Virus record (IMG/VR): IMGVR_UViG_3300017647_000004
Location: 1 to 60,548 of that record
Source of the DNA: a virus
Taxonomy: Duplodnaviria > Caudoviricetes
Direction: 5' to 3' (one strand)
DNA length: 60,548 nucleotides
Part shown: positions 657-59,413 of the stretch, piece by piece
How the letters are laid out: every line of letters begins with the position of its first letter
Position numbering within the stretch: the first letter of the stretch is position 1
Program-made: the position numbers and the translations under genes
The notes under the pieces: model-generated
What the model was told of the DNA's origin: nothing
What the model saw: the letters and a program-made list of their open reading frames with translations, nothing else
Database searches by the model: none

Positions 657-3600
657 TCTCAATCGGACGCTATCGAGCGTTATCCGCTGGGTCGGGGCGG
701 TCTCGTCCGCTCTGGCCGCCGCAGAGGTCGTGGCCTTCCCTGTCAAATCCATCCGCGAGTTCGAGCGCGAGATGGCGAACGTCCAAAAGACGACGCAGTT
801 CAGCGACCAGGAAATCCGGCAACTGTCCGGGAGCCTGAAAGACCTCTCTACTCGCATCGACATCTCGGCCACCGATCTCGCTAAGATCGCGGCGGCGGCG
901 GGCCAGCAGGGTCTCGGGCGCGAAGGCGTCCAGGGCATTGTACAGTTCACCGATTCCGTATCCCGCATGTCCTCGGTACTGGACATCTCGGTTGATGAAG
1001 CCGGTCTCGCGGTCGGTAAGCTGTCCTCCATCTTCAACATTCCCCTGACCGAAACGGAGAAGTTGGCCTCGGCATTCAACGAGGTAGCCAACAACTCCAC
1101 GGCCACGGGCGAGCAGTTGATCGACGTGGTACGACGGGTAGGCGATGCGGCGGGTGCGTTCAAGAGCTACGCCGACACCCTGGGCGTTGCCTCCACGGCT
1201 ATTGACTTCGGCGTATCGCCTGAAGTGGCCGGCACGTCCATCACCAAAATTTTCGCAGACATGCAAGGCAAGGCGGCCAAGTTCGCCGCCTTCATGAACA
1301 CGTCCGTCGATGACTGGATCAACCGCATCCAGACGGATGGCGTCAAGGCGTTCAAGGACTATCTGGACCGACTGCGCGACCTCGACGGCGCGAGCCGCCA
1401 AGCGACGATCCGGGAACTGTCCGGCACCGGGCGGATCGGGGCGCTGCTGAACAAGTTCGTCAACGATACGACCAACACCATCCTCAACCGGAACCTCGCC
1501 TCGGCCTACCGGGGCTTGAACTCCGGCACGTCTGCACTGCGCGAACAAGAGACCGTCATGAAGACGCTCGACGCGCAGATCAAGATCACCCAGAATGCCT
1601 TCCGTAACCTGGGCGTCACAGCCGGCGATCAGTTCGCCAAGCCGCTGGCGTCGATGATGGCGGAGTTGACGGATGCCTTCAAGAACCCTGCTGTCGTCTC
1701 TTTCGCGGAGTCGGTGGGCAAAGCATTCCTGGATGTCTTCCACGCTATCTCCGAGGGCATCAAGTATGTCTCGTCGCTGAACGTCAACTGGGAGAACTTC
1801 ATCCGGTTGGCCGTGGCTCTCACGGCTATCAAGGCGGCGGAATGGGCAGTCTCGTTTATCGCTCGGCTGACCGGCTTGAACCGGGTTTTGCAATCAACTG
1901 CAAAACAAGCGGCTGAGACGGCTGCTGCCGTGGATAATGCGACGAAGGCCGGCGCGGCGAACTCGGCTTCCGGCCAGATTGCGGCCCTGCGCCAGCTTTC
2001 GGCAGAACGCGCCAAGTACAAGGCCGCCATCGACGCCCAGAAGGCCGCAGAAGAGGCCCTGGCTGCTACGGAGGCTGCACGCGCTGCGGCGGTCTCTCGG
2101 CAGAACGCAGCTTTCGCAGGGCGACAGAACGCCTATCAGGCTGTCTCTCCCCAGGCCAGCGCGGTATCGGCCGCCCAGGCGGCTGCTGTCGCGGCCCAGG
2201 CTAACATCCAGCGGGCCACCGAAGCCGCCCAGCGCGCCATGAACACGCGCATCGAGCAAGCCGAGGCCCAACACCAAGCACGGCTGGCCGAGATCGAGCA
2301 GCAGTATCAGGCTCGTCGGCAGGCGGCCAAGGCCGCAGGCAACAATGCCGAGATTCGCGCACTGCGGGCGGCGAGGACCGAAGCCATCGCTGCCGAGGAA
2401 GCCAGCTACGAACGCTCGCTCCGGGCGATCAACGCCTACCATACACGGCGTATTGCCGCCGTCACTGCCGAGGCCCAGCAGGAGGCCGCAATCCGCGCCC
2501 AGGCGCTCGTACAGGCCCAGGCAGGGTACGGACAGGCCGCCAACGCTGCGGGCGTCACAGCGCAGGCTGCGGCCCTGCGGCAGGCATCCGCCGAAGTAGA
2601 CCGCCTGAACAAGGAAGTCGCTGCCGCCAAAGGCAACCTGGACACGGCGGCTGCGGGCGCTGCTGCTGCGGGCGCTGCCTTCAATCGGTTCGGCAACATC
2701 CTGGCAACGGTGCGCGCCGGCATCACGCTTCTGTTCCGCGTCCTGGGCGGGGCCTTCTTCTGGGGCACCATAATCTACACCTTCGCGGATATGTTCGGTC
2801 TGATCGACAAGCTGGGGCCGGCATTCACGAAGCTGACGGACGCCATCGGGCTCACGTCGGAATCGCAACGCAAGCTGAACCAAGAAGCGAAGGAAGCCAA
2901 CGATAGGCTGATCGAGCAGCAAAAGACTATCGACGACCATATCGACAAGTACAAGAAGCTGCAAGACGCCATGACGGGCCAGTTGCGCCCCGAAGACGTA
3001 GCGGCCTTGCCTACGATCCTGGGCGGAGAGAATCGAGATGCTGCCGCGCGCGCACTCGATGACGTTCTCACGACCATTCGCGGGGCGACCGAACTCATCC
3101 AGCAAAATCAGTCCAAACTGAAGTTGCTTCCCGACCAGCGTGCGGAAAAGGCTCAGGAACTTGCCCAGATCGAGAGCCAGTACACAGCGGCTATGCAGCG
3201 CATGCAAGCTGCGTCGGCCAAGCTGTCCGCGTCCCAACTCCAGCAGATCAACAACCCCAACGAGGCGCAAGCGGCCTCGGCTATCACGCCGGCCATGCGC
3301 TCCTATGCGGCGGCCAAGCGCGAAGTCGAGGAACTGACGAAATCGCTCGAAGCTGCCAAGGCTGCGGCGGGGAGCATTGGCGATGGCTTGAAGGAAGGTC
3401 TGGAGAAGCAAATCCGGTCGGCCCAGCAAGACCTCTCCACCTTGGCCCCTGTCGTCGCTGGATTGTTCACCGAGCAATCGGCTGGCATCTTCACCGAGTA
3501 TGCGGCGAAGCTGGCGGACCTGCGCGAGCAGATCGCCAAAGTCTCTCAGGCACGAGCGGAGTCTATCCAGGAGCAGGTCAAGGCCAGCGACAAGGGCCAG

Positions 3601-8700: not shown

Positions 8701-8879
8701 AGGAAAAATACGCCGCGTTCCCGGCCAGCGACCCCAACGATACGTCGGAAGACCCTTTCTATACGATTAACGGCACTGTCGTGAGCTTGAGCGACAAATG
8801 CCCGATCCCCACGTACTCCCTGGCGTACCCTCCGAGAGTGGCACTCAATGTCCGGGTAGAAGCGCCATCCGAAGATTGA
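5775..8879 (+). CDS. Distal tail/tail-tip structural protein with long C-terminal extension
   Basis: Follows TMP; N-terminus PNWDGGVLERLEWLT..SPSGAEQRR typical of chi/YuA-type tail proteins. Confidence 0.7.
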   Translation: MADPIIWPLFPNWDGGVLERLEWLTSILSSPSGAEQRRQLRINPRRTIEAGFVLDGTDRMWADLALQDRSVEDWYFPIWHDVTFYQGGLALNATEIPIDTTGLDYTVGGLVAVRGRGQREVQTYTITDIQPNKLVVDRVARSWNEPVFIYPVRRGRFSEQPKLTRLTDRNWTVQAEIIFSENSPWPETSFSLMHLGLPVFDTRPNEDETIDSTYQRLTVEADNQTGIPKVTDTANLGFATQTFYWTLRGRQANAELRSLLYYLRGRLRPVWIPSHYEDLQTTTPVLSGGHYMTVKNVGYTAFAGRRPGKEDIYILMKNGMSYCRRVKSSYEADPSREVLVLEEALPPGWDWRQVLRISFLSLMRLNQDSIEIDHQADTMGVSRVTAIFRAAPDLRVATDWSPVPFPSAFMSDTDCGCTTGCCGSPWAQNGGTPTNAWLDRYQDYIRDDLTPIFVNNIIGKMGQDGATPEQIQAREEALAAIASEVAAYGDKSEILFYLATLLVSLGLPSAYYGIEAYVNSTTLTITQLRKLAQNINLQMQMFTEWNYRPVGVDLLEGLRRFQASIKKSDEPTILGEFCIEMSTTSLYGTRRGATTQFWPTVANIFKAYGLMDSWVIPPLDDFTATLDGLDGLDLTARPGRAVVPVMISEFFAAHDYDSSANLPIPGGGIFARAVVTRPNQIPADSRFKYRQGSTTYGVTDSITFLGDRSGDAILQGLPNGYGAYTHYALLYLVDGSGNPLPRSLQPTAWVSDGGTEGDYKVGYDQMLTYEQILAGNVSFPGGIPPGACLGIWNAYEGEYDEEGLPTKRLLRARPIGSIVPNLYSSFRYRAASIEVQMSHSPDQSFQDGSAYITTHPTCVQSSTSVGSFEGRQWSWASLAVNYMAGQPSTINTYTVTAKDYRKKPEELHEDLMEVLPPVGSVLIIQPGFFNTDTGVPGPDEIAVRSPIDETIQPPYKQIRDQWSPRSQQIYDWDQEEEKYAAFPASDPNDTSEDPFYTINGTVVSLSDKCPIPTYSLAYPPRVALNVRVEAPSED

Positions 8880-8890
8880 AATTGATTGCA
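8877..8890 (-). repeat. 14-bp dispersed motif copy (TGA is stop of 5775..8879)
   Basis: TGAAATTGATTGCA on + strand. Confidence 0.9.
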
Positions 8891-11748: not shown

Positions 11749-14098
11749 CGTCACTATCGGCTATCGGTACTACTTCGGCATCCACATGGGTTTGGGGCGT
11801 GGGCCGGTAGACCAACTCGTCGCCATTCGAGTGGGTGACCGTATCGCATGGCCGCTCGGCTGGGACGAGGTTACCGGCCATATCGAACAGACCGATCCTG
11901 TCACCGGGCTTCCCTTGCCGCCCATTCCGGTCTATACGCACCACCCTCCCCCGGACCCAATCGTTGGCAACCAGTCATTTAAAATCCGGGCCGGCGATCT
12001 GTTCGGAGGCGACAACGGCGAAGGGGGTATCGAGGGCACTTGCTGGGTCATGATGGGCGGGCCGGACCAGACCCCGGTTCAGCCGCTGGTGGATATGCTT
12101 GAAGGCGCTATCGTTCCCGGCTTTCGCGGGGTCGTCACGCTGTTCTACGACGGATTGGTTTGTTCCCTCAACCCGTACCCCAAACAATGGAAGATGCGCG
12201 TCCGGCGCTGGAGCAAAGGCTGGGATAACGACGATTGCTGGTATCCTGAAAAGGCGCTGATCCCCATGCGCTCCATTCATGTTCTGCCCAGCGATCCGTT
12301 CGACGTGTATGCCATGAACCCGGCGCACATGCTGCTGGAGTGCCTGACGAACCGAGATTGGGGGCGGGGTTTGCCGCGCAGCATGCTCAACGAAGAGAGT
12401 TTCGTATCGGCCGCCAACACGCTTTGCGATGAGGGGTTCGGTCTCTGCCTGCGCTGGGCGCGCCAAGACACGCTCCAGTCGTTTGTCGGCCAGATTCTCG
12501 ACCACATCGGCGCGGCGCTGTACGTTGATCGTGGCTCGGGCTTGATGACGCTCCGGCTGATCCGAGACGACTACCAGATAGAAGACTTGCCGCTCTTCAC
12601 CAAGAACTCCGGCCTGCTGGATATTGAGGAAGACGACGCCAGCGCGCGGGACAAGGCCCTGAACGAGGTCGTGGTCAAGTACCATGACCCGGTAGACGAC
12701 GAAGACCGACAGGTCCGCGTACAGAACATCGCCAACCTTCAGAGCGACGGGCAGGTATTCAGCGACACGCGCGATTACCCTGGATGCCCGAACGCTGAAC
12801 TGGCCCTACGTTTGGCACAGCGAGACCTTCGGGCGGAGTCGTACGGTCTCCGTCGCTTCAAGGTCAAGTTGGACCGACGCGCATTCAAGTTGGCTCCGGC
12901 AGCAGCCTTCCGCGTCTCCGACCCGTCGCGCGGCATCGACAATATGGTTCTGCGCTCCGGCCAGATCGTGGACGCCGACATCACCGATGGCTCGTTGACC
13001 ATCTCGGCCATCCAGGATGTCTTCGGATTCCCGATGACCAGCTACATCGATCCGCAGCCGGGCGGCTGGCAACCTCCGTCTTCCGACCCTGTACCCTCGC
13101 AGAATCGCCGCTACATGACGGTCCCGTACCGCGATCTGGCTCGCGTCATGTCTGCCCCCGATCTCGACTACCTGGATGATGCAATTGATTTCATGGGCGT
13201 CATGGCCTCCAAGCCGACGAGCACGGCGCTGAACTACCTTGTCCGGGCCTCGCATGACGGCGGCACCAGCTACGCGGATCACGGGTCGGGAGACTTCACC
13301 CCCACGGCTACGCTGAAGACTGGTATCGGCCACTACACGAAGAACATCACCGTCAACAACCCTGTCGATCTCGACTTGGTTGTCGTGGGCGAAATTGCTC
13401 TGATCGGGGAGGAACTGGTCGCCATCGAGTCCATCGACATCGAGAACAACAAGCTGCGCATCAAGCGCGGCGTCGCGGACACGATTCCTGCCAAGCACTT
13501 GGCCGGGGACCGTATATGGTTCTACGAGCAGTACAACGGCAACGACGAGACCGAGTACACGGACGGCGAAGATGTCGTTTACAAGCTGCTGACCCGTACC
13601 TCGTCGGCCACGCTGCCGGAGGCCAATGCCGCGCCGGACAATGCGACCGTAGCACAGCGCCATGCCCTGCCCTACCCGCCTGGGAACTTCCGCTTGAACG
13701 GCCAACGCTTCGGGGAGGCGGTACTGGCCGAGGGTGATCTGGTCATGTCCTGGGCGCACCGCGATAGGCTGATCGAGCAGGACCAACTGATCGCACATGA
13801 AGAAGGGGACATCGGGCCGGAGCCTGGAACCACCTACACGGTTCGGATCGTTGATCCGTCCGACGATACTGTCAAGCGCACGCAGGCCGGGATCACGGCC
13901 AACACCTGGACCTACACCGCCGCCGATATTCTGGCGGATTGGGGCACGCCGACCGGGGAACCAACCAACATGATTGTCGAGTTGGAGTCAGTCCGGGCGG
14001 GCTTAGTGTCCTGGCAGCAGTATCGCGTTACCATTCAGCACTATGATGTGTTCCCGGCCGGTTGGGGCTTCAACTGGGGCAATAACTTCGGAGGCTAA
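11726..14098 (+). CDS. Tail tip / central fibre (host specificity J-like) protein
   Basis: MGGGK start, GYRYYFGIHMG, FGGDNGEGG, NPYPK, MNPAH motifs. Confidence 0.8.
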   Translation: MGGGKSSSVTIGYRYYFGIHMGLGRGPVDQLVAIRVGDRIAWPLGWDEVTGHIEQTDPVTGLPLPPIPVYTHHPPPDPIVGNQSFKIRAGDLFGGDNGEGGIEGTCWVMMGGPDQTPVQPLVDMLEGAIVPGFRGVVTLFYDGLVCSLNPYPKQWKMRVRRWSKGWDNDDCWYPEKALIPMRSIHVLPSDPFDVYAMNPAHMLLECLTNRDWGRGLPRSMLNEESFVSAANTLCDEGFGLCLRWARQDTLQSFVGQILDHIGAALYVDRGSGLMTLRLIRDDYQIEDLPLFTKNSGLLDIEEDDASARDKALNEVVVKYHDPVDDEDRQVRVQNIANLQSDGQVFSDTRDYPGCPNAELALRLAQRDLRAESYGLRRFKVKLDRRAFKLAPAAAFRVSDPSRGIDNMVLRSGQIVDADITDGSLTISAIQDVFGFPMTSYIDPQPGGWQPPSSDPVPSQNRRYMTVPYRDLARVMSAPDLDYLDDAIDFMGVMASKPTSTALNYLVRASHDGGTSYADHGSGDFTPTATLKTGIGHYTKNITVNNPVDLDLVVVGEIALIGEELVAIESIDIENNKLRIKRGVADTIPAKHLAGDRIWFYEQYNGNDETEYTDGEDVVYKLLTRTSSATLPEANAAPDNATVAQRHALPYPPGNFRLNGQRFGEAVLAEGDLVMSWAHRDRLIEQDQLIAHEEGDIGPEPGTTYTVRIVDPSDDTVKRTQAGITANTWTYTAADILADWGTPTGEPTNMIVELESVRAGLVSWQQYRVTIQHYDVFPAGWGFNWGNNFGG
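13180..13193 (-). repeat. 14-bp dispersed motif copy (in tail tip gene)
   Basis: TGCAATTGATTTCA on + strand. Confidence 0.85.
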
Positions 14099-19004: not shown

Positions 19005-19018
19005 TGAAATTGATTGCA
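19005..19018 (-). repeat. 14-bp dispersed motif copy (intergenic)
   Basis: TGAAATTGATTGCA on + strand. Confidence 0.9.
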
Positions 19019-22643: not shown

Positions 22644-22657
22644 TGCAATCAATTGCA
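22644..22657 (+). repeat. 14-bp dispersed motif copy (intergenic)
   Basis: TGCAATCAATTGCA. Confidence 0.9.
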
Positions 22658-25256: not shown

Positions 25257-25270
25257 TGCAATCAATTGCA
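25257..25270 (+). repeat. 14-bp dispersed motif copy (just downstream of promoter)
   Basis: TGCAATCAATTGCA. Confidence 0.9.
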
Positions 25271-27037: not shown

Positions 27038-27709
27038 ATGACTCAAGCCTCTATCGACATGCTTTTTGGTAACGGGGGCAGCGGCCCTCGCTACATGGAA
27101 GCCACCATCGCCTACGGCAAGATCAACCTGTCCAACGCCTCGCTGTCCGTGGCGTCGTTCCGGGTCCAAGGCCCGTTCAAGCGCGAGAGCGCCGTCAACA
27201 CCGGCAAGCGCCGGCCGGGCTTCGATCAATACGTCCACGCCACCGCGCATCCACAGATCGGCGGCGGATTCTCCACCAACCGCGTCCAGCACGAACCGGG
27301 CACGATCCTGCTGTTCCAGATCAGCCGGACTCGCAACCGCGTCCGAATCTCCGATGGGGCCATCTTTCTGCGCCTGCGCGAGGGGGCGGCCTTCCTGGCG
27401 GTCTCGGCCAAGTTGCCCACCGGGCGCGAAAGCCTGCTGGGCGACCAGTACATCATTTTCCAGGGCAACGCCGATCTGCTGAGTGTGGAAGAGCTGAAGA
27501 CCTCCGGCCTGGAAATCGCGCGGCAGTACGAGCGCAACTTCATGAGCCGGGAAGAGATCGAGGAAAACTTCCAGATCAACATCGTCTCGCCCGAGTCCAC
27601 GCCACGGCCGTCTTTGCAGCGCGTCGTCTCCGATGGCAAGGTTGTCGTACGCGAGATGGCGCAGGAGCCGGTCCGCCGCATCGGCCGCCTGCGCAGGTCC
27701 AGCGTTTGA
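27038..27709 (+). CDS. Hypothetical protein
   Basis: ATG 27038 just after AAA stop; phage-like codon use. Confidence 0.65.
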   Translation: MTQASIDMLFGNGGSGPRYMEATIAYGKINLSNASLSVASFRVQGPFKRESAVNTGKRRPGFDQYVHATAHPQIGGGFSTNRVQHEPGTILLFQISRTRNRVRISDGAIFLRLREGAAFLAVSAKLPTGRESLLGDQYIIFQGNADLLSVEELKTSGLEIARQYERNFMSREEIEENFQINIVSPESTPRPSLQRVVSDGKVVVREMAQEPVRRIGRLRRSSV

Positions 27710-27720
27710 AGTTGATTGCA
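27707..27720 (-). repeat. 14-bp dispersed motif copy (TGA is stop of 27038..27709)
   Basis: TGAAGTTGATTGCA on + strand. Confidence 0.85.
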
Positions 27721-36285: not shown

Positions 36286-36825
36286 ATGCCTGTCCAACAC
36301 GCCACGGCGGCCCGCCGTATCACTACCCTGCGGCGCACCGCCGCCGCGAAGCCGGCCGCAGCCGAGGCATCGACCCGCGTTGTTCGGCGCACCCGCGCAG
36401 CCTCCCCGGCCTCCCCGTCCGATGAGGCTATTGCGGAGATCGGGAACCGTTTGCAATTGATTGCAGATGTCGATGCGGAACTGCGCGAGGCGACAACTCG
36501 CCGTGAGATTCTGGTCGCGGAGATCGCCAAGCTGATACACGACGGCAAGATCAGCGGCGAGGTCATCAACCACGGCTACCGGGCGGTTATCGAAGACACG
36601 ATGTCCCGCGCCAGCACGGACATTGATGTCATCGATCTGTTCAACTACCTGAAGAAGATGGGCAAGCAGGACGAGTTCTGGGGGTTGGTGAAGGTCCAGA
36701 TCGGGGAGGTCAAGAAAGTCCTCAGCGACCGGGAATATGCCAAGCTGCCGAAGGAGGAAACCGCCGCCGCGAAGACGGGCAGCAAGATCACCGTCGAGCC
36801 GGTCAAAGTCAAGGGCCGCAAGTAA
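36286..36825 (+). CDS. Hypothetical protein
   Basis: GGAG RBS; Arg/Ala-rich N-terminus then helical region. Confidence 0.65.
   Translation: MPVQHATAARRITTLRRTAAAKPAAAEASTRVVRRTRAASPASPSDEAIAEIGNRLQLIADVDAELREATTRREILVAEIAKLIHDGKISGEVINHGYRAVIEDTMSRASTDIDVIDLFNYLKKMGKQDEFWGLVKVQIGEVKKVLSDREYAKLPKEETAAAKTGSKITVEPVKVKGRK
36452..36465 (-). repeat. 14-bp dispersed motif copy (intragenic)
   Basis: TGCAATTGATTGCA on + strand. Confidence 0.9.
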
Positions 36826-42123: not shown

Positions 42124-42353
42124 GTAAGTCGGTCCCGAACTTCCGGCGCTGGCTGGACCGCGATCTGGTCCCGGCCCCGTATATGCGGGAAACGGCGCGG
42201 GGCCTGCGCGTCTACACGGTAGGAGAACTGGAGATCATCGGGCAGGAGTTGGCCCTGCATGAACAGGAATTCGCCTACTACTGCGCACAACACGAAGACG
42301 TACGCCACCGGATGTTCCAGCGCATCCAAGGCTACCGGGCGCACAATATTTAA
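41835..42353 (+). CDS. MerR-like HTH DNA-binding protein
   Basis: YTVPEAAAALGKSVPNFRRW..RDLVP...RVYT; GGGAG RBS. Confidence 0.6.
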   Translation: MPLKPVITRNGKPGNRFKSTPDRNQQRRDKYATDPGIREKAKEASRSSYRRAVPLRPSALQGGLLTAGTLREITHEDLEQPTTVETYTVPEAAAALGKSVPNFRRWLDRDLVPAPYMRETARGLRVYTVGELEIIGQELALHEQEFAYYCAQHEDVRHRMFQRIQGYRAHNI

Positions 42354-45129: not shown

Positions 45130-46086
45130 ATGGTCACCCGTCTGCGCCGCACAATGGTCAAACCCCCGGAGAACACGACGGTCCGCCGCATCACGCGCCG
45201 CCGCCTGGGCGCGCCGGAGCCTGCCCCGGCTCGACGTGCCGATGCTGATGGGAAGATTGTCGAACTGGACGAGGACAGCCCTCTCGTCGAATACCTGAAG
45301 CGAGTACGCTCCACGCCACGGGCAATGCGGGGCGGGGACTACCTCCACGTCTCCGACCTGATCCATCGCTGCCTGCGCAAATCCGCGCTCTGCGAAAAGT
45401 ACAACGTCAAGCCGCGCCCCCAGGTACTAACCTTGGGCGACCGCTTCACCTTTGCACAGGGTGAGGCGATTCACGATACGGCCAAGCAGATGTTCGTCGA
45501 GTCCGCTCCGAACGAGATATGGGGCAGATGGCGCTGCCATTGCGGCTTCCTGCACCACGAGGAACCCTGCACACTGGAAGAGACCGATGTCGATGAGGTC
45601 TGCCCACAATGCCGGAAGAAATGCAACATCTACGAAGAAGTCCCGATGTTCGACGACGAGTTGATGGTTGTGGGCAACCCGGACCTTCTGCACTACCGGC
45701 AAGCGATACAGGCGTTCCACGTATCGGAGTTGAAATCAATTTCACACGATCAATGGAAAGACCTTAAGAGACCGCTGCCGGACCATGTACTCCAGGCGAT
45801 TTTTTACTGGCGCATCATGCACAGGCGGGGGTATCCTCTCACCGACCACGTTTCCATCCTGTATGTCACCAAGGGCTGGGTCTTCGGGTACACATCGCCG
45901 GTCAAGGAATTTGTCCTGAAGGTCGCTCCCGAACTGCCGCGCCTCAACGACATGATCGAGGACGCTATCGCGTACCGGGATGCGAAGAAAAGCGGGCGGT
46001 TGCCCATCCGAATCAAATGCTCGACCACGGAGTCCCCAGATGCGAAGAATTGTGAGGTCTGCCAACTCTGCTTCCAGGAGCGCTAA
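45130..46086 (+). CDS. PD-(D/E)xK (Cas4-like) exonuclease
   Basis: HVSDL..C.RK, GEAIH, EE, GNPD, ELKS, QAIFY, C-terminal C..C..C. Confidence 0.7.
   Translation: MVTRLRRTMVKPPENTTVRRITRRRLGAPEPAPARRADADGKIVELDEDSPLVEYLKRVRSTPRAMRGGDYLHVSDLIHRCLRKSALCEKYNVKPRPQVLTLGDRFTFAQGEAIHDTAKQMFVESAPNEIWGRWRCHCGFLHHEEPCTLEETDVDEVCPQCRKKCNIYEEVPMFDDELMVVGNPDLLHYRQAIQAFHVSELKSISHDQWKDLKRPLPDHVLQAIFYWRIMHRRGYPLTDHVSILYVTKGWVFGYTSPVKEFVLKVAPELPRLNDMIEDAIAYRDAKKSGRLPIRIKCSTTESPDAKNCEVCQLCFQER
45731..45744 (+). repeat. 14-bp dispersed motif copy (in exonuclease)
   Basis: TGAAATCAATTTCA. Confidence 0.85.
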
Positions 46087-46655: not shown

Positions 46656-46669
46656 TGCAATCAATTGCA
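46656..46669 (+). repeat. 14-bp dispersed motif copy (intergenic)
   Basis: TGCAATCAATTGCA. Confidence 0.9.
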
Positions 46670-46773: not shown

Positions 46774-48027
46774 ATGGCGAAAGCTCAAACGAAGAAGGCG
46801 GCCCCCGCCGCAGCCGACGAGATCGTCGTCGGTTCCCAAGTCAAGTTCCTCGGCTACGACGAAAGTGTCCCCGAAGAGGAACGCATCCTCGAAGCCGAGC
46901 AAGTCTACGAAGTCGTCGGCCTGCCGGAAGTCGTCAAGGATGAAGAATCCGGCGAAGATGTCGAAACCGGCTTCGTGGTCAAGGCCCCGAACCCCGACTT
47001 CAACCCCAAGAAGAAGGTCCACCCCGACACGAACCCCGAATTCCTGGAAACCGAAGTCCTGGAAGACGAGATCGAGCTGGTCCCGGGCGAACCCGCTGCT
47101 GCCGCCGAACCGGCCGCCGAAGCCGAAGCCGAAGCCGAAGCTGCCAAGCCGGCGCGCGGCAAGGGTAAGGCCGGCGTCAAGGAGCAGACGGCTGCTGCCG
47201 ACACCAAAGCGACCAAGACCGCCGCCAAGAAGACCGCCAAGGCCGCGCCCAAGGAAGAAGCCGATGGCGAAGAGGCCGCCAACGACGAACTGCCCGACCT
47301 GGAAAACGAGGACGAGTCGGTTCTGGCGCTGATCGCGGAATCCGACGACCTGATCGCCACGGCGCAGGAACTGGAAGCCAACGTCGCCACGACCGAGTTC
47401 CAACTGGGCGGCATCCTGTTCCACATCAAGAAGGCCAAGTCCTACCTCGAAGTCGAGGGCGGCGAAGCCTACGATGAAGCCGGTGGCTTCCAGAAGTTCC
47501 TGCTGGACTTCTTCAATGTCGATTACCGCAAGGCGATGTACCTGATCGACATCTACACCTGCTTCACCCTGGCCGGCATCGAGAACCCGTCGCAGGTCGT
47601 GGCCGAGATCGGCTGGACCAAGGCCAGCAAGATAGCCAAGCATCTCGTGGGCGAGAACGCCGATGTCGAGGGCCTGATCGCCCTGGCGCAGGAAAACACC
47701 GTGGCCGACCTGTCCGAGGCCATCAAGGAGCAGGTCGAAGTCGGCTCCAGCAAGAACCCGGGCGAGAAGAAGACGCGCCTGACCCTGAAGTTCCGCTACT
47801 TCGAGGAAGAAGCGGCCATCGTCGAGGACACGCTGAACGCGGCCAAGGAACAACTGGGTCTGAAAGACACCACCGAAGCCCTGCTGCACATCCTGCAAGA
47901 ATGGGCGATCACCAACGGCGGTGAAGCGGCCGAGACGGGCAAGGAAGAGCAGGCCGCGCCGGCCCGCAAGGCCCCCGGCAAGCCCGCGACCAAGGCGGCT
48001 TCCAAGCGCGCCACGGCCAAGGCGTAA
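46774..48027 (+). CDS. Acidic/Ala-Lys-rich putative DNA-binding protein
   Basis: Strongly biased (high-expression) codons; histone-like AK tracts; LGGILFHIK..FQKFL..FNVDYRKAMYLI helical HTH-like core. Confidence 0.65.
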   Translation: MAKAQTKKAAPAAADEIVVGSQVKFLGYDESVPEEERILEAEQVYEVVGLPEVVKDEESGEDVETGFVVKAPNPDFNPKKKVHPDTNPEFLETEVLEDEIELVPGEPAAAAEPAAEAEAEAEAAKPARGKGKAGVKEQTAAADTKATKTAAKKTAKAAPKEEADGEEAANDELPDLENEDESVLALIAESDDLIATAQELEANVATTEFQLGGILFHIKKAKSYLEVEGGEAYDEAGGFQKFLLDFFNVDYRKAMYLIDIYTCFTLAGIENPSQVVAEIGWTKASKIAKHLVGENADVEGLIALAQENTVADLSEAIKEQVEVGSSKNPGEKKTRLTLKFRYFEEEAAIVEDTLNAAKEQLGLKDTTEALLHILQEWAITNGGEAAETGKEEQAAPARKAPGKPATKAASKRATAKA

Positions 48028-48106: not shown

Positions 48107-48820
48107 ATGGCAACACGTCGAATCGCCCGCCGAACTGGCGGCACGGCAAGCAGGCCCGAAGCGGCCCCTCAGCAGGACTTTCGCCAACAACGGCTGAAGT
48201 TCGAGTATCGGGACATCACCGATATCAATCCGTACGAATGGAACGCCCGGGACAACGCCAAGGCCGTCGAGGCGGTCAAGAAGTCCATCGAGACCTTCGG
48301 CTTCCTGGTCCCTTGCGTCATCGACGACGAGGGCAATCTGGCGGCGGGGCACACCCGCGTGGAGGCGGCCAAGCTGCTACAGATGACGGCAGTACCCGTG
48401 GTCTACGCCTCGCACCTGACCCCGGAGCAGTTGAACGCCTTCCGGTTGATCGACAACAAGGTCTCCGAGATCGCGGACTGGGACTACGATCTGCTGGCCG
48501 GCGAGATTGCCAAGCTGTCGGATGTCGGGTTCGATCTATCCGGCTACGGCTGGTCGGCGGAAGAAATCGACTGCCTGCGCTCCGTCGTGGCCGACGACTG
48601 CCTGGACAGCAACACGTTGGTCACAGACCAGGAGCGAGAGCAGATCACTCGGGCGGAGCGGCGCGCGCCGGCCACCACCCGTATCGTGATCGGGGAGTTC
48701 GTCTTCTTCGTCCCGCAGCGCAGCTATCGCACCTGGGCGGACGGCATCCGACAACTCTGCGACTTCGACGAAGAGAGCATCGCCGCAGAACTCAAGCGCC
48801 GGCTGGCGATCCCGGAGTAG
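48107..48820 (+). CDS. ParB/Srx N-terminal-domain protein
   Basis: INPYEWNAR, SIETFGF..P, AGHTRVEAA, FRLIDNK. Confidence 0.85.
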   Translation: MATRRIARRTGGTASRPEAAPQQDFRQQRLKFEYRDITDINPYEWNARDNAKAVEAVKKSIETFGFLVPCVIDDEGNLAAGHTRVEAAKLLQMTAVPVVYASHLTPEQLNAFRLIDNKVSEIADWDYDLLAGEIAKLSDVGFDLSGYGWSAEEIDCLRSVVADDCLDSNTLVTDQEREQITRAERRAPATTRIVIGEFVFFVPQRSYRTWADGIRQLCDFDEESIAAELKRRLAIPE

Positions 48821-48823: not shown

Positions 48824-50368
48824 ATGCCCGTCGTTCGACGTACCCGAGTCAAACCGGCCCCACGCAGCGCGATCCTGGCCGTCAGCGTCCACGAACTGGT
48901 CCCGGACGATACCAACCCCCGGCAACCCGATCCGGCGCGCCTGGGACTGCTACGGCTGTCCCTGGCTAAACTGGGATTCCTGATGCCTGTCTTCCGGCAG
49001 AAGGGCACCAATCTGCTGCTGTCGGGCCACCAACGGTTGACCGTAGCCAAAGACCTGGGCCTGGACACCATCCCCTGCATGGATATCGAACTGGACGAGG
49101 CGGACATCAAGGGGGTCAACATCCTGTTCAACCGGATAACCAACGACTTCAACGCCTTCGACACGGGCGGCAAGGTCGCGGAGAAGCTGGACATGCAGAC
49201 GGTCATCGCGGCGGCCGAGGCGCTGCCCGACAAAGACCCGGAAATCCATGCAGCGTTCCACTGCCGGGACGAACCCATAGCACCTATCGTCCGCAGCGTG
49301 CCCGAGCTATACGACAAGAAGGCCGCGCTGGCGGCGCACACGCTGCTGCGCAAGGGCATCAGGATTCCTGCCGTCGTCACGATCTCCGGGCGTGTCATCA
49401 ACGGCATCCACCGGCTGTTCTCGGCGCTTGAATCCGGCGTCACGTCCTGGCCCATTGTCCGGGTGTCGGATGAGATCGGAGACGTAGCCAGCGCCCTGCT
49501 GAACTACCTGTCGATGGACTACAAGATCGACGGCGAATTCAAAGACCTGTTGCGGGCGGGCGCATTCCGGCGAGCGTCGAACGATAAGGGCACGGTCCCG
49601 AAGTCCTACCGCTTCTGGGCCAACGGATGCCGCACGTTGCTGGACAAGGACAGCTACACGCCGGAAGCATGGAACCATTTCAGGCACACGCACGGCCAGA
49701 ACATCCTCGACTTCGGCGCGGGGCTTTGCAAGGTCGCCCCTTACCTCCAGACGAAGGGCATGAATGCCATCGACTTCGAGCCGTACCGATTTGACCCGGA
49801 CAAGCCGGGCGGCCAGCCTGACCCGGCCTATTCCCGTCAACAGGCGAAGCGGTTTCTGCAATTGATTGCAAACCCCAAGCTGAAGTTCGATTCGATCTTC
49901 CTGTCGGCGGTCATGAACTCGATCCCGTTCCCGGAAGATCGTCTGAAGGTGCTCGCTATCGTCCATGCACTCTGCACGCGCGCCACGGCGGTCTACGGTA
50001 CATGTCGGGACATCTCGGACTTCAACTACGAGTACGGCGGGGAGCGCCGCAGCGTATACTTCGTCATGGATGGTGAGCCTGGGGTTCGCCTAGGCGATGT
50101 CACCAGCCGTCCGAAGCTCCAGAAGTTCCACTCCCAGGCTGAGGCGAAGGAGATGTTCAGCCGCTTCTGGAAGACCGTGGAGTTCTGGCCGGGCGGCAAC
50201 GTCTTCTACTATAAGCTGACCAACGCAGTCGGCGTTAATGCAAAAGTCCTGGCCCAGTCGCTGGAGTTCGAGTTTGATCTGCCCTACCTGGACGGGTCCA
50301 CGATGGGTCTGGTCAAGGAAGCCAAAGAGGCTTTCGCAAAGCGGCTCATGATGGGCCGACTACCGTAG
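48824..50368 (+). CDS. Tandem ParB/Srx domains fused to SAM-dependent methyltransferase-like domain
   Basis: NPR..LLSGHQRL; second VINGIHRL; ILDFGAGL, FDSIFLSAVMNS. Confidence 0.75.
   Translation: MPVVRRTRVKPAPRSAILAVSVHELVPDDTNPRQPDPARLGLLRLSLAKLGFLMPVFRQKGTNLLLSGHQRLTVAKDLGLDTIPCMDIELDEADIKGVNILFNRITNDFNAFDTGGKVAEKLDMQTVIAAAEALPDKDPEIHAAFHCRDEPIAPIVRSVPELYDKKAALAAHTLLRKGIRIPAVVTISGRVINGIHRLFSALESGVTSWPIVRVSDEIGDVASALLNYLSMDYKIDGEFKDLLRAGAFRRASNDKGTVPKSYRFWANGCRTLLDKDSYTPEAWNHFRHTHGQNILDFGAGLCKVAPYLQTKGMNAIDFEPYRFDPDKPGGQPDPAYSRQQAKRFLQLIANPKLKFDSIFLSAVMNSIPFPEDRLKVLAIVHALCTRATAVYGTCRDISDFNYEYGGERRSVYFVMDGEPGVRLGDVTSRPKLQKFHSQAEAKEMFSRFWKTVEFWPGGNVFYYKLTNAVGVNAKVLAQSLEFEFDLPYLDGSTMGLVKEAKEAFAKRLMMGRLP
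49857..49870 (-). repeat. 14-bp dispersed motif copy (in ParB-MTase)
   Basis: TGCAATTGATTGCA on + strand. Confidence 0.9.
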
Positions 50369-50857: not shown

Positions 50858-51622
50858 ATGAGTCTCAGCGTCAACGAAGACCCGCAAAAGCCTGTTCACT
50901 TCCCTGCCGATCCCGACAAGTTCGTTTTCGACAACGAGGTCACGGCGATTTTCCCGAACATGGCAAAGCGGTCGATCCCGCACTTCTACGAAGCACACGC
51001 CATGCATGCTCGCATGCTGGCCGCCTGGGTCCAACGCCCTGGTCTCCAGATCGCCGACTTCGGCGCATCGCGCGGCGCGTTCATCGACGCTCTGCGGAAC
51101 TGCTACGGCCCCGGCATTGTCAAGCACGTCTGCGCCGCCGATATCTCCGACTCGATGTGCAGTCGCTTGGAAGCTGACTTCCCGGACGCCAGGGTTCACC
51201 GCATGGACATCACCAGCGCCGAGTTCCTGTCGGACGACAACCGTTCGTCGTTCGATATCATCAACCTGAACTACGTCCTGCAATTCGTTCCGCCGACCCT
51301 TCAGGATTGCGTCCTGACCAAGATACTGGATATGGTCAAGCCGGGCGGCGTCCTCATCTATGGCACGAAGGAAGACGACAACACGCCGCTGGGCGCGCTA
51401 CTGCATGAGCAGTACATCCAGTTCCGGCTGGACAACGGCTACACCCGCGAAGAGATCGTGGCAAAGTCGGCGGCCCTGAAGAATTCGATGTGGCCCACGA
51501 ACCGCCTCTGGTTCCTCGGCCGCTTGGCTTCTTCCGGCTTCAGCGTCCGCGAGACCACGCGCTACGCGGTCTTCGCCACCTACTTCGCCATTCGGGACGG
51601 AGGCAACCATGGCGCAGGATGA
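50858..51622 (+). CDS. CmoA-like SAM-dependent transferase
   Basis: FVFDNEVTAIFPNMAKRSIP, DFGASRG, LNYVLQFV, KPGG.L, NGYTREEI. Confidence 0.78.
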   Translation: MSLSVNEDPQKPVHFPADPDKFVFDNEVTAIFPNMAKRSIPHFYEAHAMHARMLAAWVQRPGLQIADFGASRGAFIDALRNCYGPGIVKHVCAADISDSMCSRLEADFPDARVHRMDITSAEFLSDDNRSSFDIINLNYVLQFVPPTLQDCVLTKILDMVKPGGVLIYGTKEDDNTPLGALLHEQYIQFRLDNGYTREEIVAKSAALKNSMWPTNRLWFLGRLASSGFSVRETTRYAVFATYFAIRDGGNHGAG

Positions 51623-52445
51623 TGCCAACACCCCGCAACGGCGCGTCGTGCTTCGGCGCGGCCGCCAGGGCGGCGGCTTCGGCGGGGGCGGAGTACGTGG
51701 CTCCGGTCCGGTCCAGGGCATGCCTCGCAGCCATCACGAGGAAGACGAGGTAGACGACGCCATCGACCCGCACCGGATGAACCAAGCGGTCCGCACTCTG
51801 CCCGCTCCTGGCCCGCAGGGCGGCCCGCCCCCGGACGATCCCGATAACCCGCAGAACCGCCTCTTCCAGGTCGCGGCGGCGGGCAGCAGCGCCTATGCCA
51901 AGGAGTATCGACTGCAACTGCTGCATCGCCTGCTGCTGCGGCGCGTACCCCTGGATCAAATCGCGCGGCAACTGGGCGTCTCCATCTCCACCGTCGAGAA
52001 GGACCGGGCCGAACTGAAGAAGCGGTTGCGCGAGGCGGCGCGGGAACTCGATATCAACGAGATGATTGGCAACCAGACCGAACTCTACGACGAGATATCG
52101 GGCATGGGCCTGCGCATCGCTAGTAGCGATGCTCCGACGCCGATGAAGCTGGCGGCCATGCGTACCTCGCTCGCGGCCAACGCGGACAAGGCGCGCTTCT
52201 ATCAGTCGGCCGGCGTCTTCGATGTCCTGCGCTATCGCCGGTCGGAAGACGGCTCCAGCATCTCGGATGTCCACCAACTCATGGAGAACACCGAGCGCAT
52301 GCTGCAAGTCCTGATGGAGGGCGATGATGCTGCCGATGGTGGCCGTCGCCGCGACCCACCTGCGCCCAGGCGTCGCCGTACGCGCGGCTTCCGGGATTTC
52401 CAGGACACCGACTCCAACGACCATGCGGAAGTTGTCGAACTATGA
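51609..52445 (+). CDS. Terminase small subunit candidate (HTH)
   Basis: LDQIARQLGVSISTVEKD HTH; overlaps terL start (ATGA). Confidence 0.6.
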   Translation: MAQDDANTPQRRVVLRRGRQGGGFGGGGVRGSGPVQGMPRSHHEEDEVDDAIDPHRMNQAVRTLPAPGPQGGPPPDDPDNPQNRLFQVAAAGSSAYAKEYRLQLLHRLLLRRVPLDQIARQLGVSISTVEKDRAELKKRLREAARELDINEMIGNQTELYDEISGMGLRIASSDAPTPMKLAAMRTSLAANADKARFYQSAGVFDVLRYRRSEDGSSISDVHQLMENTERMLQVLMEGDDAADGGRRRDPPAPRRRRTRGFRDFQDTDSNDHAEVVEL

Positions 52446-54346
52446 ATGCACCACTGAATCGCCGGGCGACGCGCTTCCTTGAAGAAGTCGAGGCCGTCGC
52501 CCAAGGCATGAACAACGAGATGTTCGGGGAGATGTACCTCACCGCCGTCAAGAACTTCATGCACGGCGACCCGACGCTGTTTCGGTTTGTCAAGCAACTG
52601 GAGCGCCCGCCTGTCTCCATCCAGGAGTTCATGGACTCCCCGGAGTTCCTGGGTGCGACCGACCTGAACATCTGGCCCGAGGTCCGCAAGGCGCTGATCG
52701 AGATCAACCAGAACTGGTGGCGCGGCGTTGATTATGGGGCGTACGACGAGGGCCTGATGATGGGCGCGACTGGCACGGCCAAGTCCACCATCTCCATGGT
52801 CTCGATCATGTACCACACCTATCTGCTGGGCTGCTGCAAGAACCCGCAGGCTATCTACGGTCTCCCGAAGCAAACGTCCATCGTTTTCCCGATCATGGGC
52901 GCGAAGCCCCACGTCGTGAACAAGGTCGTTTATGCCCCGATGCGCAAGTTCATCGAGGCCATGCCCTACTTCCAGAAGTTCATGCCGCCGTCCAAGCTGA
53001 TCGACAGCGAAATGTACTTCGAGGAAAAGAACATCCGAATCGTCCGGGCAGGCGGCGACGAAGACGCCATCCTGGGTGAAGCCGTCATCGGCGGGATGAT
53101 CGACGAAATCAACTTCATGCAGGTTGTCCAGCGGTCCAAGAAGGCCGAGGTCAGCACCGGGCGGGCGGGCCTGTACGATCAGGCCGAGCAGGTCCACCAC
53201 CGGATGGTCACCCGGAAGAAAGGCCGCTTCCAGAAGCCCGGCAACTTCCCCATGATGGGCATCATCTTCCCGTCCTCGTCCACCCGGTACAAGGGCGACT
53301 TCACCGACAAGCGCAAGGCGTTCGTCGAGCGCAACAAGATCAAATCCACCTACATCTACAACAAGCGACAGTACGATGTCGTCCCGCAGGATCGCTTCAG
53401 CGGCGAGAAGTTCCGCCTGCTGATAGGCAATGACCTGCAACACGATACGCGCGTCCTGGAGCCTGGAGAGACGGTCCCGAAGGGGGCCTGGGTCGAGCAA
53501 GTCCCGGTCGAGTACCTGGAAGCGTTCCGCGACAAGCCGTACGACACGCTGCGCGACGTTCTGGGCATCTCCCACAACGCACTGTCTCCGTTCATCAAGA
53601 GCCGGCACAAGGTCTACGAATGCGTCGAGGCCGGGCGGGAAGAGGGCCTGGAGTCGTTCCTGGTCAAGGATCACGTCATCCTTGGCATCGACGGCATGCT
53701 CCAGGTCAAGCAGCACCACTACTGCGGCAACCCGTCACGCCCCCGTTACGTCCATATCGACTTGTCCATCAACGGCGACCGATGCGGCGTGGCAATGGTC
53801 TGCTTCACGGGCCTGATCGAGGTAGAGCGCCAGGGCCTGCGCGAGTTGATGCCCACGGCGCGCCTGGAGATGGCGGCGACCATTGAGCCGGACGCCAACA
53901 ACGAGATCGACATTGCAGAGGTTCGGGCGTTCGTCGCCCAGCTTCGCAACCGCTACGGCTACCCGATCAAGGGCGTCTCTTACGACGGATTCAATTCTCG
54001 TGAATCCATCCAGGCATGGCGAAAGGCCGGCATGAAAGCTACACTGCTTTCCGTCGATAGGACCGACGTACCGTACAAGCAATTCCGAGATGCGATGTAC
54101 GACGGTCGTATCCTGTTGCTCGATGATGCGGTCTTGCTGGACGAGATCGTCAACCTGGAACACGACACCAAAACCGGCAAGGTCGATCACCCCGTCACGG
54201 GCAGCAAAGACGTATCCGATGCTGTTTGCGGGGCGTATACCAACATGCTCGAACGTCGCTCGACCTGGATGGCCGGCAGTGATGATCGGGACAGCGACGG
54301 CCGGTACATCGGCGGGGAAAGATATTCGGGCGAGCGGCGTTTTTGA
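52442..54346 (+). CDS. Terminase large subunit
   Basis: GATGTAKS (Walker A), GMIDE (Walker B), HIDLS and DH...SKDVSDA nuclease motifs. Confidence 0.8.
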   Translation: MNAPLNRRATRFLEEVEAVAQGMNNEMFGEMYLTAVKNFMHGDPTLFRFVKQLERPPVSIQEFMDSPEFLGATDLNIWPEVRKALIEINQNWWRGVDYGAYDEGLMMGATGTAKSTISMVSIMYHTYLLGCCKNPQAIYGLPKQTSIVFPIMGAKPHVVNKVVYAPMRKFIEAMPYFQKFMPPSKLIDSEMYFEEKNIRIVRAGGDEDAILGEAVIGGMIDEINFMQVVQRSKKAEVSTGRAGLYDQAEQVHHRMVTRKKGRFQKPGNFPMMGIIFPSSSTRYKGDFTDKRKAFVERNKIKSTYIYNKRQYDVVPQDRFSGEKFRLLIGNDLQHDTRVLEPGETVPKGAWVEQVPVEYLEAFRDKPYDTLRDVLGISHNALSPFIKSRHKVYECVEAGREEGLESFLVKDHVILGIDGMLQVKQHHYCGNPSRPRYVHIDLSINGDRCGVAMVCFTGLIEVERQGLRELMPTARLEMAATIEPDANNEIDIAEVRAFVAQLRNRYGYPIKGVSYDGFNSRESIQAWRKAGMKATLLSVDRTDVPYKQFRDAMYDGRILLLDDAVLLDEIVNLEHDTKTGKVDHPVTGSKDVSDAVCGAYTNMLERRSTWMAGSDDRDSDGRYIGGERYSGERRF

Positions 54347-54357
54347 AATTGATTGCA
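54344..54357 (-). repeat. 14-bp dispersed motif copy (TGA is terL stop)
   Basis: TGAAATTGATTGCA on + strand. Confidence 0.9.
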
Positions 54358-57224: not shown

Positions 57225-57392
57225 ATGGACACGCCCTCGATCATCGCCTCAACCTCCGCTATCGTTTATGCCGTGGGTCTCGGCGCGGGGGCGCTCCTGA
57301 TGTACTGTCGTAGCCACGTCGAGCGCATGCACCGTTTGCAATTGATTGCAGCGATGCGCCTCGATCTCGCCTTGGCCCGTCGCGGCCTTTAA
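57225..57392 (+). CDS. 55-aa membrane microprotein (absent from ORF track)
   Basis: MDTPSIIASTSAIVYAVGLGAGALLMYC...; fills gap after phoH. Confidence 0.5.
   Translation: MDTPSIIASTSAIVYAVGLGAGALLMYCRSHVERMHRLQLIAAMRLDLALARRGL
57337..57350 (-). repeat. 14-bp dispersed motif copy (in microprotein ORF)
   Basis: TGCAATTGATTGCA on + strand. Confidence 0.9.
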
Positions 57393-59083: not shown

Positions 59084-59402
59084 AGGTAGCCTGATCTCCC
59101 AGGACGATCTCCTGGAGGCCCTGACGGCGGCGGGACTCATTCCTCGTACGGTCATTGGTACGGGCGGCACCAAGCGCAAGGTGCTGCACCAAGTACGCCT
59201 GGAAGACCTGCTGCCGGTCATCAACCAACTTGCGCAGGGCTGCATGCCTGACGAGGATCGGGTCGCCTTTCTGGTCATGGACCACATCAAGACGATGTAT
59301 CCGCAGGTATGGGCGGCCATGCACTCGACCTGCCGACTCAGCGTCAAGAACACGGTCAAGCGAGAGATCGGGAACTCGCTGAACCAGTCGCGCAATATCT
59401 GA
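59076..59402 (+). CDS. Hypothetical protein
   Basis: AGGAGG RBS before ATG 59076. Confidence 0.6.
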   Translation: MAEGSLISQDDLLEALTAAGLIPRTVIGTGGTKRKVLHQVRLEDLLPVINQLAQGCMPDEDRVAFLVMDHIKTMYPQVWAAMHSTCRLSVKNTVKREIGNSLNQSRNI

Positions 59403-59413
59403 AATCAATTGCA
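59400..59413 (+). repeat. 14-bp dispersed motif copy (TGA is stop of 59076..59402)
   Basis: TGAAATCAATTGCA. Confidence 0.9.

Follow-up and report, generated by a model that had tools for sequence, protein, structure and literature searches.

An evenly spaced array of 14-bp inverted repeats across a clade of large siphophages and its candidate readers

KorB, a member of the ParB family, binds the 13-bp OB operators on the IncP plasmid RK2, and Noc, a ParB-family protein with no ParA partner, uses 14-bp palindromes dispersed over the Bacillus subtilis chromosome. Dispersed sites also occur in phages: the stoperators of Cluster A mycobacteriophages are asymmetric and oriented with transcription, Cluster O mycobacteriophages carry 17-bp palindromic repeats, and phage P1, a plasmid prophage, has dispersed C1 operators. 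Operators of the LacI/GalR family (including the PurR, cre, and PtxS boxes) share the 14-bp shape TG.AA..CG..TT.CA. Here, we describe a lattice of near-identical 14-bp sites along a 60,548-nucleotide stretch of DNA from a tailed virus (Duplodnaviria; Caudoviricetes; IMG/VR record IMGVR_UViG_3300017647_000004, positions 1 to 60,548). This whole stretch, hereafter the window, is a linear virus record estimated to be 64% complete. The closest known counterparts of the lattice appear to be the RK2 operators of KorB and the 14-bp palindromes of Noc. Judged from sequence, the sites may be the window's share of a chromosome-wide, evenly spaced array for one phage-encoded homodimer, a reading to which we give about even credence.

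The pattern TGMAATCAAYTKCA was matched at exactly 17 places in the window, 7 on the plus strand and 10 on the minus strand (Table 1), reproducing the starts and the strand split listed in an initial annotation of this DNA. That annotation had judged the number far above chance, and 100 dinucleotide-preserving shuffles gave a mean of 0.01 matches with a maximum of 1, none equaling 17; the pattern read backwards, used as a control, had no match. The overall G+C content (GC) of ~62% that it had estimated by eye was close to the computed value (~0.61 overall, 0.59 to 0.62 per 4-kb segment). Relative to TGCAATCAATTGCA, 8 copies are exact, 7 have one mismatch, and 2 have two. Allowing three mismatches adds just two places (430 and 34194), both unrelated in appearance; the set has a clear edge. 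The motif consists of two inverted half-sites, TGCAAT and ATTGCA, and its dyad lies on one CpA step at the center, which is CA in 17/17 copies. The T-rich 5′ and A-rich 3′ flanks noted earlier were found as TT at 9/17 sites and AA at 8/17. Nine copies lie inside called genes, and the peptides first assigned to them (LQSTA, DAIDF, LQLIA at four sites, EIDC, CNQLQ, and LKSIS) were the same on re-reading. A codon-preserving control had been proposed; in 100 synonymous-codon shuffles of the called genes the mean was 0.22 and the maximum 2, against the 9 found. Four of the remaining, "intergenic" copies reach into coding sequence: at 8877, 27707, 54344, and 59400, the TGA of a variant half-site, TGAAAT, is the stop codon of the upstream gene.

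The window belongs to a large clade of 80- to 120-kb siphophages with one-direction transcription; Stenotrophomonas phage DLP5 and Pseudomonas phage SM1 are members, as is a Rhizobium plasmid-prophage. All but one of its 61 called genes are on the plus strand (60/61; codon-usage gene model trained on the window's own sequence), and the genes of every compared relative sit on one strand. By DNA, its nearest isolated phages are the 93-kb Pseudomonas SM1-type siphophages (~65% identity, covering one quarter of an 8-kb probe). A scan of a viral collection for the exact 14-mer returned many 90- to 100-kb contigs with several copies. Whole-record counts were 40 in G001, 50 in G002, 23 in G003, 47 in G004, 30 in G005, 9 in G006, 4 in G007, 23 in G008 (64% complete), 20 in G009, and 10 in G010, and the backwards control pattern was absent from all relatives counted. 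In the cultured temperate phage DLP5 there are 35 copies, of which 26 are exact. GC of the compared relatives ranges from 0.39 to 0.62 (0.47 to 0.62 for the complete or near-complete genomes G001 to G005), and their replication and recombination proteins are 23 to 45% identical to those of the window (~45 to 63% in the closer G003 and SM1). The only protein families common to all ten genomes first compared were a helicase, a RecA-like protein, and the family of gene 46774, with an exonuclease in nine. The persistence of one 14-mer over this range of GC and protein divergence makes a reader tied to one host unlikely. The initial annotation had named conservation in related phages as a check on the array, and the same 14-mer recurs in very distant relatives. 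At least 13 public runs (soil, wastewater, and sludge metagenomes) match the window, which is taken to be a soil phage contig, and four of these runs (X1 to X4, all soil) were compared in detail. Their assembled contigs, which cannot show nicks, ends, or modification, bridge several sites and contain no variant within the seven sites covered.

Placement was surveyed at 192 sites (≤2 mismatches) in five genomes. Intergenic DNA, which makes up 5 to 9% of each genome, holds 85 of these sites within it or at its edge (44%). The other 107 (56%) are inside genes, 72 of them in the frame xTG-CAA-TCA/TTG-ATT-GCA, which gives LQSIA or LQLIA. In G002, 21 sites lie in genes, compared to 0.64 in synonymous-codon shuffles. 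Across the genomes, every long tail gene has a site either internally or at its end. The coefficient of variation of the gaps between sites was 0.41 in the window, 0.52 to 0.63 in seven relatives, and ~0.95 for random placement; in DLP5 it was 0.46. Using a null that kept the numbers of intergenic and coding sites and allowed one site per intergenic gap, spacing was more even than expected in 8/8 genomes (P ≤ 0.0015), and the largest gap per genome was 4.1 to 7.5 kb.

The substitutions tolerated by the motif follow its symmetry. Across 276 sites from seven genomes, positions 2, 4, and 11 were invariant and position 13 varied once, and the members of each symmetry pair varied near-equally (positions 1/14, 8 and 9 times; 3/12, 6 and 7; 5/10, 6 and 10; 6/9, 9 and 10). 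In the window, seven sites are changed at just one of positions 3 and 12 and one site is changed at both; base pairing is therefore broken rather than kept, and the half-sites behave independently. Such a substitution pattern is the one expected from a homodimer that reads two equivalent half-sites. The central dinucleotide is CpA here and TpA or CpG in other lineages, and this one step on the dyad is perhaps read by its deformability. Orientation of exact sites relative to the coding strand was balanced in the window (4:4) and G003 (11:11) and biased in G005 (29:1), G004 (32:15), G002 (33:17), and G008 (5:18). Intergenic sites are one-sided in G005 (17:0) and G001 (12:1). The two orientations are interspersed, with no block-wise switch along the genomes, and strand composition was rejected as the source of the bias because the skews do not fit. 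The earlier statement that the sites are not oriented thus stands for the window (7:10) but not for relatives such as G005 and G008.

Lineages differ in the sequence of the site. SM1 lacks the window's motif and instead has 29 copies of TGCAA(A/G)CGCTTGCA; SM1 and G003 are equally close to the window (~55% amino acid identity), yet only SM1 has the different motif. G007 favors the perfect palindrome TGCAATCGATTGCA. In every genome examined, the arms TGCAA and TTGCA co-occur with a 4-base spacer only. A survey of variants was made at loci around homologues of gene 46774, taking the best 80 of at least 145 relatives; for many of these loci the motif type was judged from two or three copies. At 38 of the 80 loci, at least four copies of one 5-N4-5 inverted repeat were found within ≤20 kb. 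The arms are TGCAA in 32 of the 38, with TCAA, TTAA, TCGA, CTGA, CCCG, or GCGA as the center, and others have GGCAA, TGACA, TGCAG, or TGAAA. The plasmid p7, a 109-kb circular plasmid of a Rhizobium isolate with the window's gene order, has 19 TGCAAC(G/C)CGTTGCA-type sites within 41.8 kb. A clean lattice-free relative was sought among ~117-kb phages that are site-poor under the strict pattern, and none was found there; a relaxed search revealed degenerate or flank-shifted versions, with GCAATCAATTGC present 23 times in G014 and 39 sites at ≤3 mismatches in G013. Despite the switched sequence in SM1, three positions are common to the window, G003, and SM1: 5′ of the AAA+ gene, within gene 29819, and 5′ of gene 46774. 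Positions that stay fixed while the sequence switches argue that sites are maintained in place and change together with their reader, which in turn favors a phage-encoded reader over a host factor. G006 (L149-L153; 38.6% GC) also contains G+C-rich 12-mers such as GCCCGAAAGGGC, 10 to 13 times; these are probably terminator hairpins or another repeat family.

The array, its symmetry, spacing, conservation, and co-variation are properties of the genomes themselves, and from them we infer a bound protein. Each monomer would read one TGCAAT half-site. The array would be an old, conserved trait of the clade in which sites and protein co-evolve, and for this reason lineages would vary at the four central bases and, less often, in the arms. 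Selection would maintain a site every few kilobases, with gaps of no more than ~7.5 kb, even by writing sites into genes, so the protein's job seems to need coverage of the whole molecule. The sites may serve as nucleation or loading points from which the protein then spreads, bridges, or blocks, as KorB or Noc do, and the likely purpose would be silencing and/or organizing the phage chromosome. In cultured relatives, this chromosome can persist as a plasmid-like prophage. The same protein could also regulate neighboring promoters at some sites, including that of gene 46774. The initial annotation had proposed one dimeric DNA-binding protein acting genome-wide, a proposal that appears well supported by the symmetry of 276 sites, the spacing in 8/8 genomes, the embedding in genes, the conservation, and the co-evolving variants.

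Candidate readers were sought among the window's proteins (Table 1). The best conserved site position in the clade lies 75 to 116 nucleotides 5′ of the 46774-family gene (7/10 genomes), and in G001, G002, G004, and G008 this site is 6 to 8 bp before a -35-like hexamer. DLP5 has a one-mismatch site 64 nucleotides 5′ of its family member. The 46774 protein has a conserved helical core (RKAxYLxxIY and LGWTK motifs), and the window copy has lysine/alanine/proline-rich tails, likened to the basic histone H1. Its codon-usage score (237.9 for 417 amino acids) is the third-highest in the window and among the highest per residue. All 478 homologues are annotated "hypothetical" and have no Pfam domain; Vibrio phage VHS1 encodes one. 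Upstream of the gene, 46087-46773 is a 690-bp stretch with no called gene, the longest in the window, and contains a lattice site. The MerR-like open reading frame, which the initial annotation had also listed, is syntenic in 13/15 genomes and is shortened to 62 amino acids (gp044) in the SM1 annotation. The initial annotation had noted two ParB-domain genes, and 48107 and 48824 have ParB_N and PHROG ParB-like matches. The Pfam ParB_N scores are weak (19.1 and 18.2 bits versus a cut-off of 26.3), and the PHROG match reaches E 1e-48. ParB_N proteins occur in 10/10 compared genomes, and six relatives score above the Pfam cut-off. Against the Protein Data Bank (PDB), a G001-type ParB-like profile matched Noc, ParB, and Spo0J structures (E 2e-14 to 9e-9), with Noc structures as the best matches. 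The window's own ParB_N proteins matched Noc weakly, far below the cut-off (E 4e-4 and 2e-3). The ParB_N genes adjoin terminase genes, so a role in packaging is possible, and their products may serve there. The 51609 product is a weaker binder candidate and is probably the small terminase subunit.

Table 1. Lattice sites and genes for candidate reader or partner proteins in the window
Feature	Coordinates	Strand	Context
Lattice site TGCAATCAACTGCA	1889..1902	+	In tape-measure-like gene 598-5763, frame LQSTA
Lattice site (TGAAATTGATTGCA on +)	8877..8890	-	TGA is stop of gene 5775-8879; ribosome-binding site and ATG of next gene 14 nucleotides on
Lattice site	13180..13193	-	Within gene 11726-14098, frame DAIDF
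Exact lattice site	15712..15725	-	Within 1393-residue tail gene 14100-18281, LQLIA
Lattice site	19005..19018	-	Intergenic; stop of 18292-18996 is 9 nucleotides earlier
Exact lattice site	22644..22657	+	Intergenic; 5 nucleotides past stop of 20762-22639; G+C-rich hairpin with T run comes next
Exact lattice site	25257..25270	+	63 nucleotides 5′ of AAA+ ATPase gene 25333-27030; position also present in G003, SM1, G004, and G005 (5/8 genomes)
Lattice site, two mismatches	27707..27720	-	TGA is stop of 27038-27709; next start 3 nucleotides on
Lattice site	30601..30614	-	Mid-gene in 29819-31252, beside A+T-rich inverted-repeat stretch; equal relative position in G003 and, center changed, in SM1
Exact lattice site	36452..36465	-	Within gene 36286-36825, LQLIA
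Exact lattice site	40567..40580	+	Within helicase gene 40384-42123, CNQLQ; G003 site at equal relative position
Lattice site TGAAATCAATTTCA	45731..45744	+	Both half-sites TGAAAT variant; within exonuclease gene 45130-46086
Exact lattice site	46656..46669	+	105 nucleotides 5′ of gene 46774
Exact lattice site	49857..49870	-	Within ParB_N-methyltransferase gene 48824-50368, LQLIA
Lattice site	54344..54357	-	TGA is stop of terminase-large-subunit-like gene 52442-54346
Exact lattice site	57337..57350	-	Between PhoH gene (56488-57222) and 57411; doubtful 55-residue reading frame
Lattice site	59400..59413	+	TGA is stop of 59076-59402; next start 16 nucleotides on
Candidate binder 1, 46774 family	46774..48027	+	In 10/10 genomes; lattice site upstream
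Candidate binder 2, small MerR/excisionase-type helix-turn-helix protein	41835..42353	+	Overlaps called helicase 3′ end
Candidate partner, ParB N-terminal-domain protein (GHTR motif)	48107..48820	+	
ParB N-terminal domain and class I methyltransferase-like domain fusion	48824..50368	+	
Sigma-region-4-like helix-turn-helix protein	51609..52445	+	Directly 5′ of terminase-like gene

Several results weigh against a phage-encoded homodimer acting across the chromosome, or against any one of these proteins as its identity. Its reader can be named only as a set of candidates (the 46774 family, the MerR-like protein, and the ParB-like proteins), and 36% of the phage genome lies outside the record. The 46774 family had no match in Pfam (all 9 members searched) or NCBIfam and no PDB sequence match below E 0.07. 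In Foldseek searches, the full 46774 model gave a best E of 0.055, dominated by a window-specific SH3-like N-terminus and with Noc at rank 33, and a short homologue (predicted local distance difference test score ~90, residues 40-170) gave a best E of 0.99, to Raf1. Aligning the family with a ParB-like profile in hhalign returned a probability of 0.04, and its matches to ParB helix-turn-helix clusters in the Atlas were at sub-threshold level only. The presumed reading helix of the MerR-like protein differs among genomes with an identical motif. HTH_ParB was not matched in any of 10 ParB_N proteins; the PDB alignment does enter the helix-turn-helix region of Noc, but the aligned ParB_N segment is acidic. 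No ParA/Soj-like match was obtained with Pfam, PHROGs, or NCBIfam among ~45 window proteins, a scan that left out the structural genes and the missing 36%. Sigma-70-like promoter matches were not enriched in the window, and none adjoins a site. The strong and opposite orientation biases of G005 and G008 are not expected of a symmetric binder, and the high uniformity of the sites (50/52 exact in G002) would also suit an enzyme recognition site.

A more elaborate arrangement was considered for the ParB-like proteins. The initial annotation had listed parS-like loading sites among its options; the ParB_N genes are there as that option would need, but a ParB-type DNA-reading helix and ParA were not recognized in the scanned proteins. 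In a split ParB system, the lattice would serve to coat or organize the entire 80- to 120-kb chromosome: a reader, perhaps an abundant 46774-family protein, would nucleate on the 14-mers and the nearby ParB/Noc-like CTP-switch proteins, taken to lack a DNA-reading helix, would spread over the few kilobases between them, to silence, segregate, or shield the genome, with the motif variants acting as incompatibility or immunity types. We regard this arrangement as possible but on balance unlikely.

In relatives, the sites have some link to transcription. Many in G001 and G002 lie 5 to 8 bp 5′ of good -35/-10 pairs, and several in G005 come right after the -10 box of a promoter type that recurs. 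In other places, the sites come after terminator hairpins or stop codons or just before ribosome-binding sites. A terminator scan of the window showed no enrichment and no link to the sites. Two known site types were tried and rejected: for an integration host factor site, the ATCAA core is there but the TTR part is absent, and SM1 is without the core; for a sigma-54 site, the spacing is two bases short.

The lifestyle of relatives is relevant to any reading of the array. The temperate phage DLP5 replicates in phagemid form; of 36 restriction enzymes tried, only 4 digested its DNA, which was described as heavily modified (PMC5834331). Lysogens of DLP3 are stable, and the ParB domains led its authors to suspect a phagemid (PMC7326821). 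Lysogens of VHS1 are described as holding the phage extrachromosomally (PMC3148565). The 14-mers were not found in a phage context in the published texts searched, which did not extend to supplements. Repeats of this kind go unmentioned in the DLP5 paper (PMC5834331) and in the available passages of the DLP3 and RcZahn papers.

Transcription and lifestyle together bear on a reading of the sites as immunity-repressor operators of the stoperator kind, in which the repressor of an episomal prophage would block a one-direction genome and the motif variants would be immunity groups. The relatives are temperate or plasmid-borne, their genes are all on one strand, and sites occur at gene boundaries, over transcription starts in G005, and by -35 boxes in G001 and G002; the close SM1 differs in specificity while distant genomes share one, as if immunity diversifies, and the number and uniformity of the sites resemble those of Cluster A mycobacteriophage stoperators. 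However, the stoperator option raised in the initial annotation fails on asymmetry, the sites being symmetric and in several lineages perfectly palindromic, and on single orientation, which is mixed in the window and oppositely biased in G005 and G008. Roadblocks also have no obvious need for over-even spacing or for 56% of sites in genes, no repressor gene was identified in the window, and SM1-type phages are described as lytic (UF_RH6). We consider repressor operators unlikely. Recognition sites for an enzyme that nicks one strand, as in T5, or modifies bases, perhaps through a ParB-like nuclease domain or the ParB_N-methyltransferase, stay a serious alternative, if an unlikely one, in view of the great uniformity of the sites and the heavy modification of DNA in a relative. 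The near-invariant sequence, the ParB-like nuclease-type domains, and two methyltransferase-like genes in the window are compatible with it, as is the modification reported for DLP5, and the non-palindromic CpA center and the 29:1 bias of G005 would fit a strand-specific act. Yet perfect palindromes dominate other lineages, where a symmetric cutter would make double-strand breaks, and the half-site-symmetric tolerance points to a symmetric reader. Nicks or marks have no obvious need for even spacing, and the methyltransferase domains belong in Pfam to a generic small-molecule/RNA class, not to DNA methylases.

The remaining explanations carry still lower probability. Dispersed initiator or priming sites, or Chi-like signals for the phage helicase, nuclease, and RecA, would be in keeping with a spacing of 1.9 to 3.6 kb, of the order of lagging-strand fragments, with the helicase and RecA-like protein in 10/10 genomes and the exonuclease in 9, and with the conserved site in the O-like gene beside an A+T-rich, repeat-bearing stretch. 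Primase and Chi signals, however, are short, asymmetric, and oriented, whereas the sites here are 14 bp, symmetric, and mixed with no block-wise orientation switch, and a role in replication or recombination is very improbable. A hairpin in RNA or single-strand DNA (5- to 7-bp stem, 4-nucleotide loop) on long transcripts is harder still to credit. The motif with its flanks folds, many sites lie past stop codons or before ribosome-binding sites, and intergenic orientation is one-sided in G005 and G001; but the stem is weak (-4.4 kcal/mol only), sites point both ways on the transcribed strand (7:10 in the window, with the bias reversed in G008), over half of the sites are inside genes, pairing-breaking single changes outnumber compensated ones by 7 to 1 in the window, and an Rfam search of the window matched no family. 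A hairpin element is unlikely because pairing is broken, the fold is weak, both orientations occur, and Rfam gave no match. A functionless short repeat, selfish or neutral and multiplied by copying, could explain lineage-specific orientation biases. Flanks conserved for 1 to 2 bases at most, the lack of terminal repeats, in-gene copies in frame, positions common to ~55%-identical genomes, one 14-mer over very deep divergence, and over-even spacing all count against it, and with spacing and conservation to explain, it is scarcely credible.

Other features of the window were noted. Gene 29819-31252 has a weak match to a replication-protein-O-like winged helix, and within it, 40 nucleotides before its lattice site, an A+T-rich segment (30459-30560) that contains two short inverted repeats may act as a replication origin located in the initiator gene, by analogy with lambda. 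At 25333-29384, DUF1257 and DUF2997 proteins come after a CDC48/FtsH-like AAA+ ATPase, making up a conserved trio. The DnaG/Toprim-type primase (36829-38811) has 660 amino acids versus 321 to 366 in relatives and is probably interrupted by an intein, given its double length and its LAGLIDADG and intein-splicing matches. In the region 51609-54346, the terminase-large-subunit-like gene (634 amino acids) lies amid nucleotide-metabolism genes, far from the tail genes and preceded by the two ParB_N genes and the sigma-region-4-like protein gene, an order shared by DLP3, DLP5, and the Rhizobium plasmid. The nucleotide-metabolism set (54404-60538) comprises thymidylate synthase, dCTP deaminase, PhoH, NUDIX, and DUF1643 proteins and may be tied to the heavy DNA modification reported for DLP5. 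The thymidylate synthase carries an insertion (330 amino acids versus a 266-position profile). One contig of run X1 joins 44860 to 56856, skipping 11,995 bases with 21 letters on its shorter side, and is probably an assembly artefact or from another organism.

Few DNA features are as well conserved as the lattice in this large and little-studied group of phages, to which both plasmid-like prophages and therapy candidates against Stenotrophomonas and Pseudomonas belong. Identifying its reader would give a function to at least one "hypothetical" core gene and could explain episomal persistence, or DNA protection or organization, in these phages. Its variants (centers TCAA, TTAA, TCGA, RCGC, and CSCG) would be natural co-evolved protein-site pairs in which specificity changes across dozens of sites at once, and the motif offers a simple metagenome marker for members of the clade.

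Compared with described systems, the lattice most resembles KorB and its operators by analogy. Both have at least about a dozen near-identical short palindromes over a ~60-kb replicon, with copies by -35 boxes, further off, or promoter-distant and in genes, on an element that is plasmid-like. The phage site, 14 bp and TGCAAT-CA-ATTGCA, is unlike the 13-bp OB, and its array is 2 to 4 times denser per kilobase, half in genes, and over-evenly spaced; the scanned phage proteins included no recognizable ParB-type DNA-reading helix, KorA, or ParA/IncC partner. Noc likewise has many dispersed 14-bp palindromes and acts chromosome-wide without ParA, as is predicted for a lattice reader of the ParB family, but the phage sites are on a phage genome at ~20 times the density and have an unrelated half-site. 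Stoperators are similar in being 20 to 35 near-identical 13- to 14-bp sites, many in short gaps or over start or stop codons, with a motif that varies between phages; they differ in that lattice sites are symmetric, of mixed orientation, and 56% in genes. Cluster O repeats and P1 C1 operators are also conserved short repeats across a phage genome, thought to belong to one regulator, but they are essentially intergenic and promoter-linked, and we know of no recorded selection for even spacing or in-gene embedding in either. The LacI-operator resemblance raised in the initial annotation is a likeness only: the shape is shared, and the variants TGCAATCGATTGCA of G007 and TGCAAACGCTTGCA of SM1 have a central CG, but the window center is CA in all 17 copies and no LacI-type domain was found in ~45 scanned window proteins. 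Chi differs in being short, asymmetric, and oriented, where the lattice site is 14 bp, symmetric, and interspersed in orientation. Arrays of dispersed sites have been described in a small number of plasmids, chromosomes, and temperate phages; in this clade, selection for even spacing is visible, and the array is written into coding sequence with the same 14 bases across phages of ~30% protein identity and hosts of varied GC.

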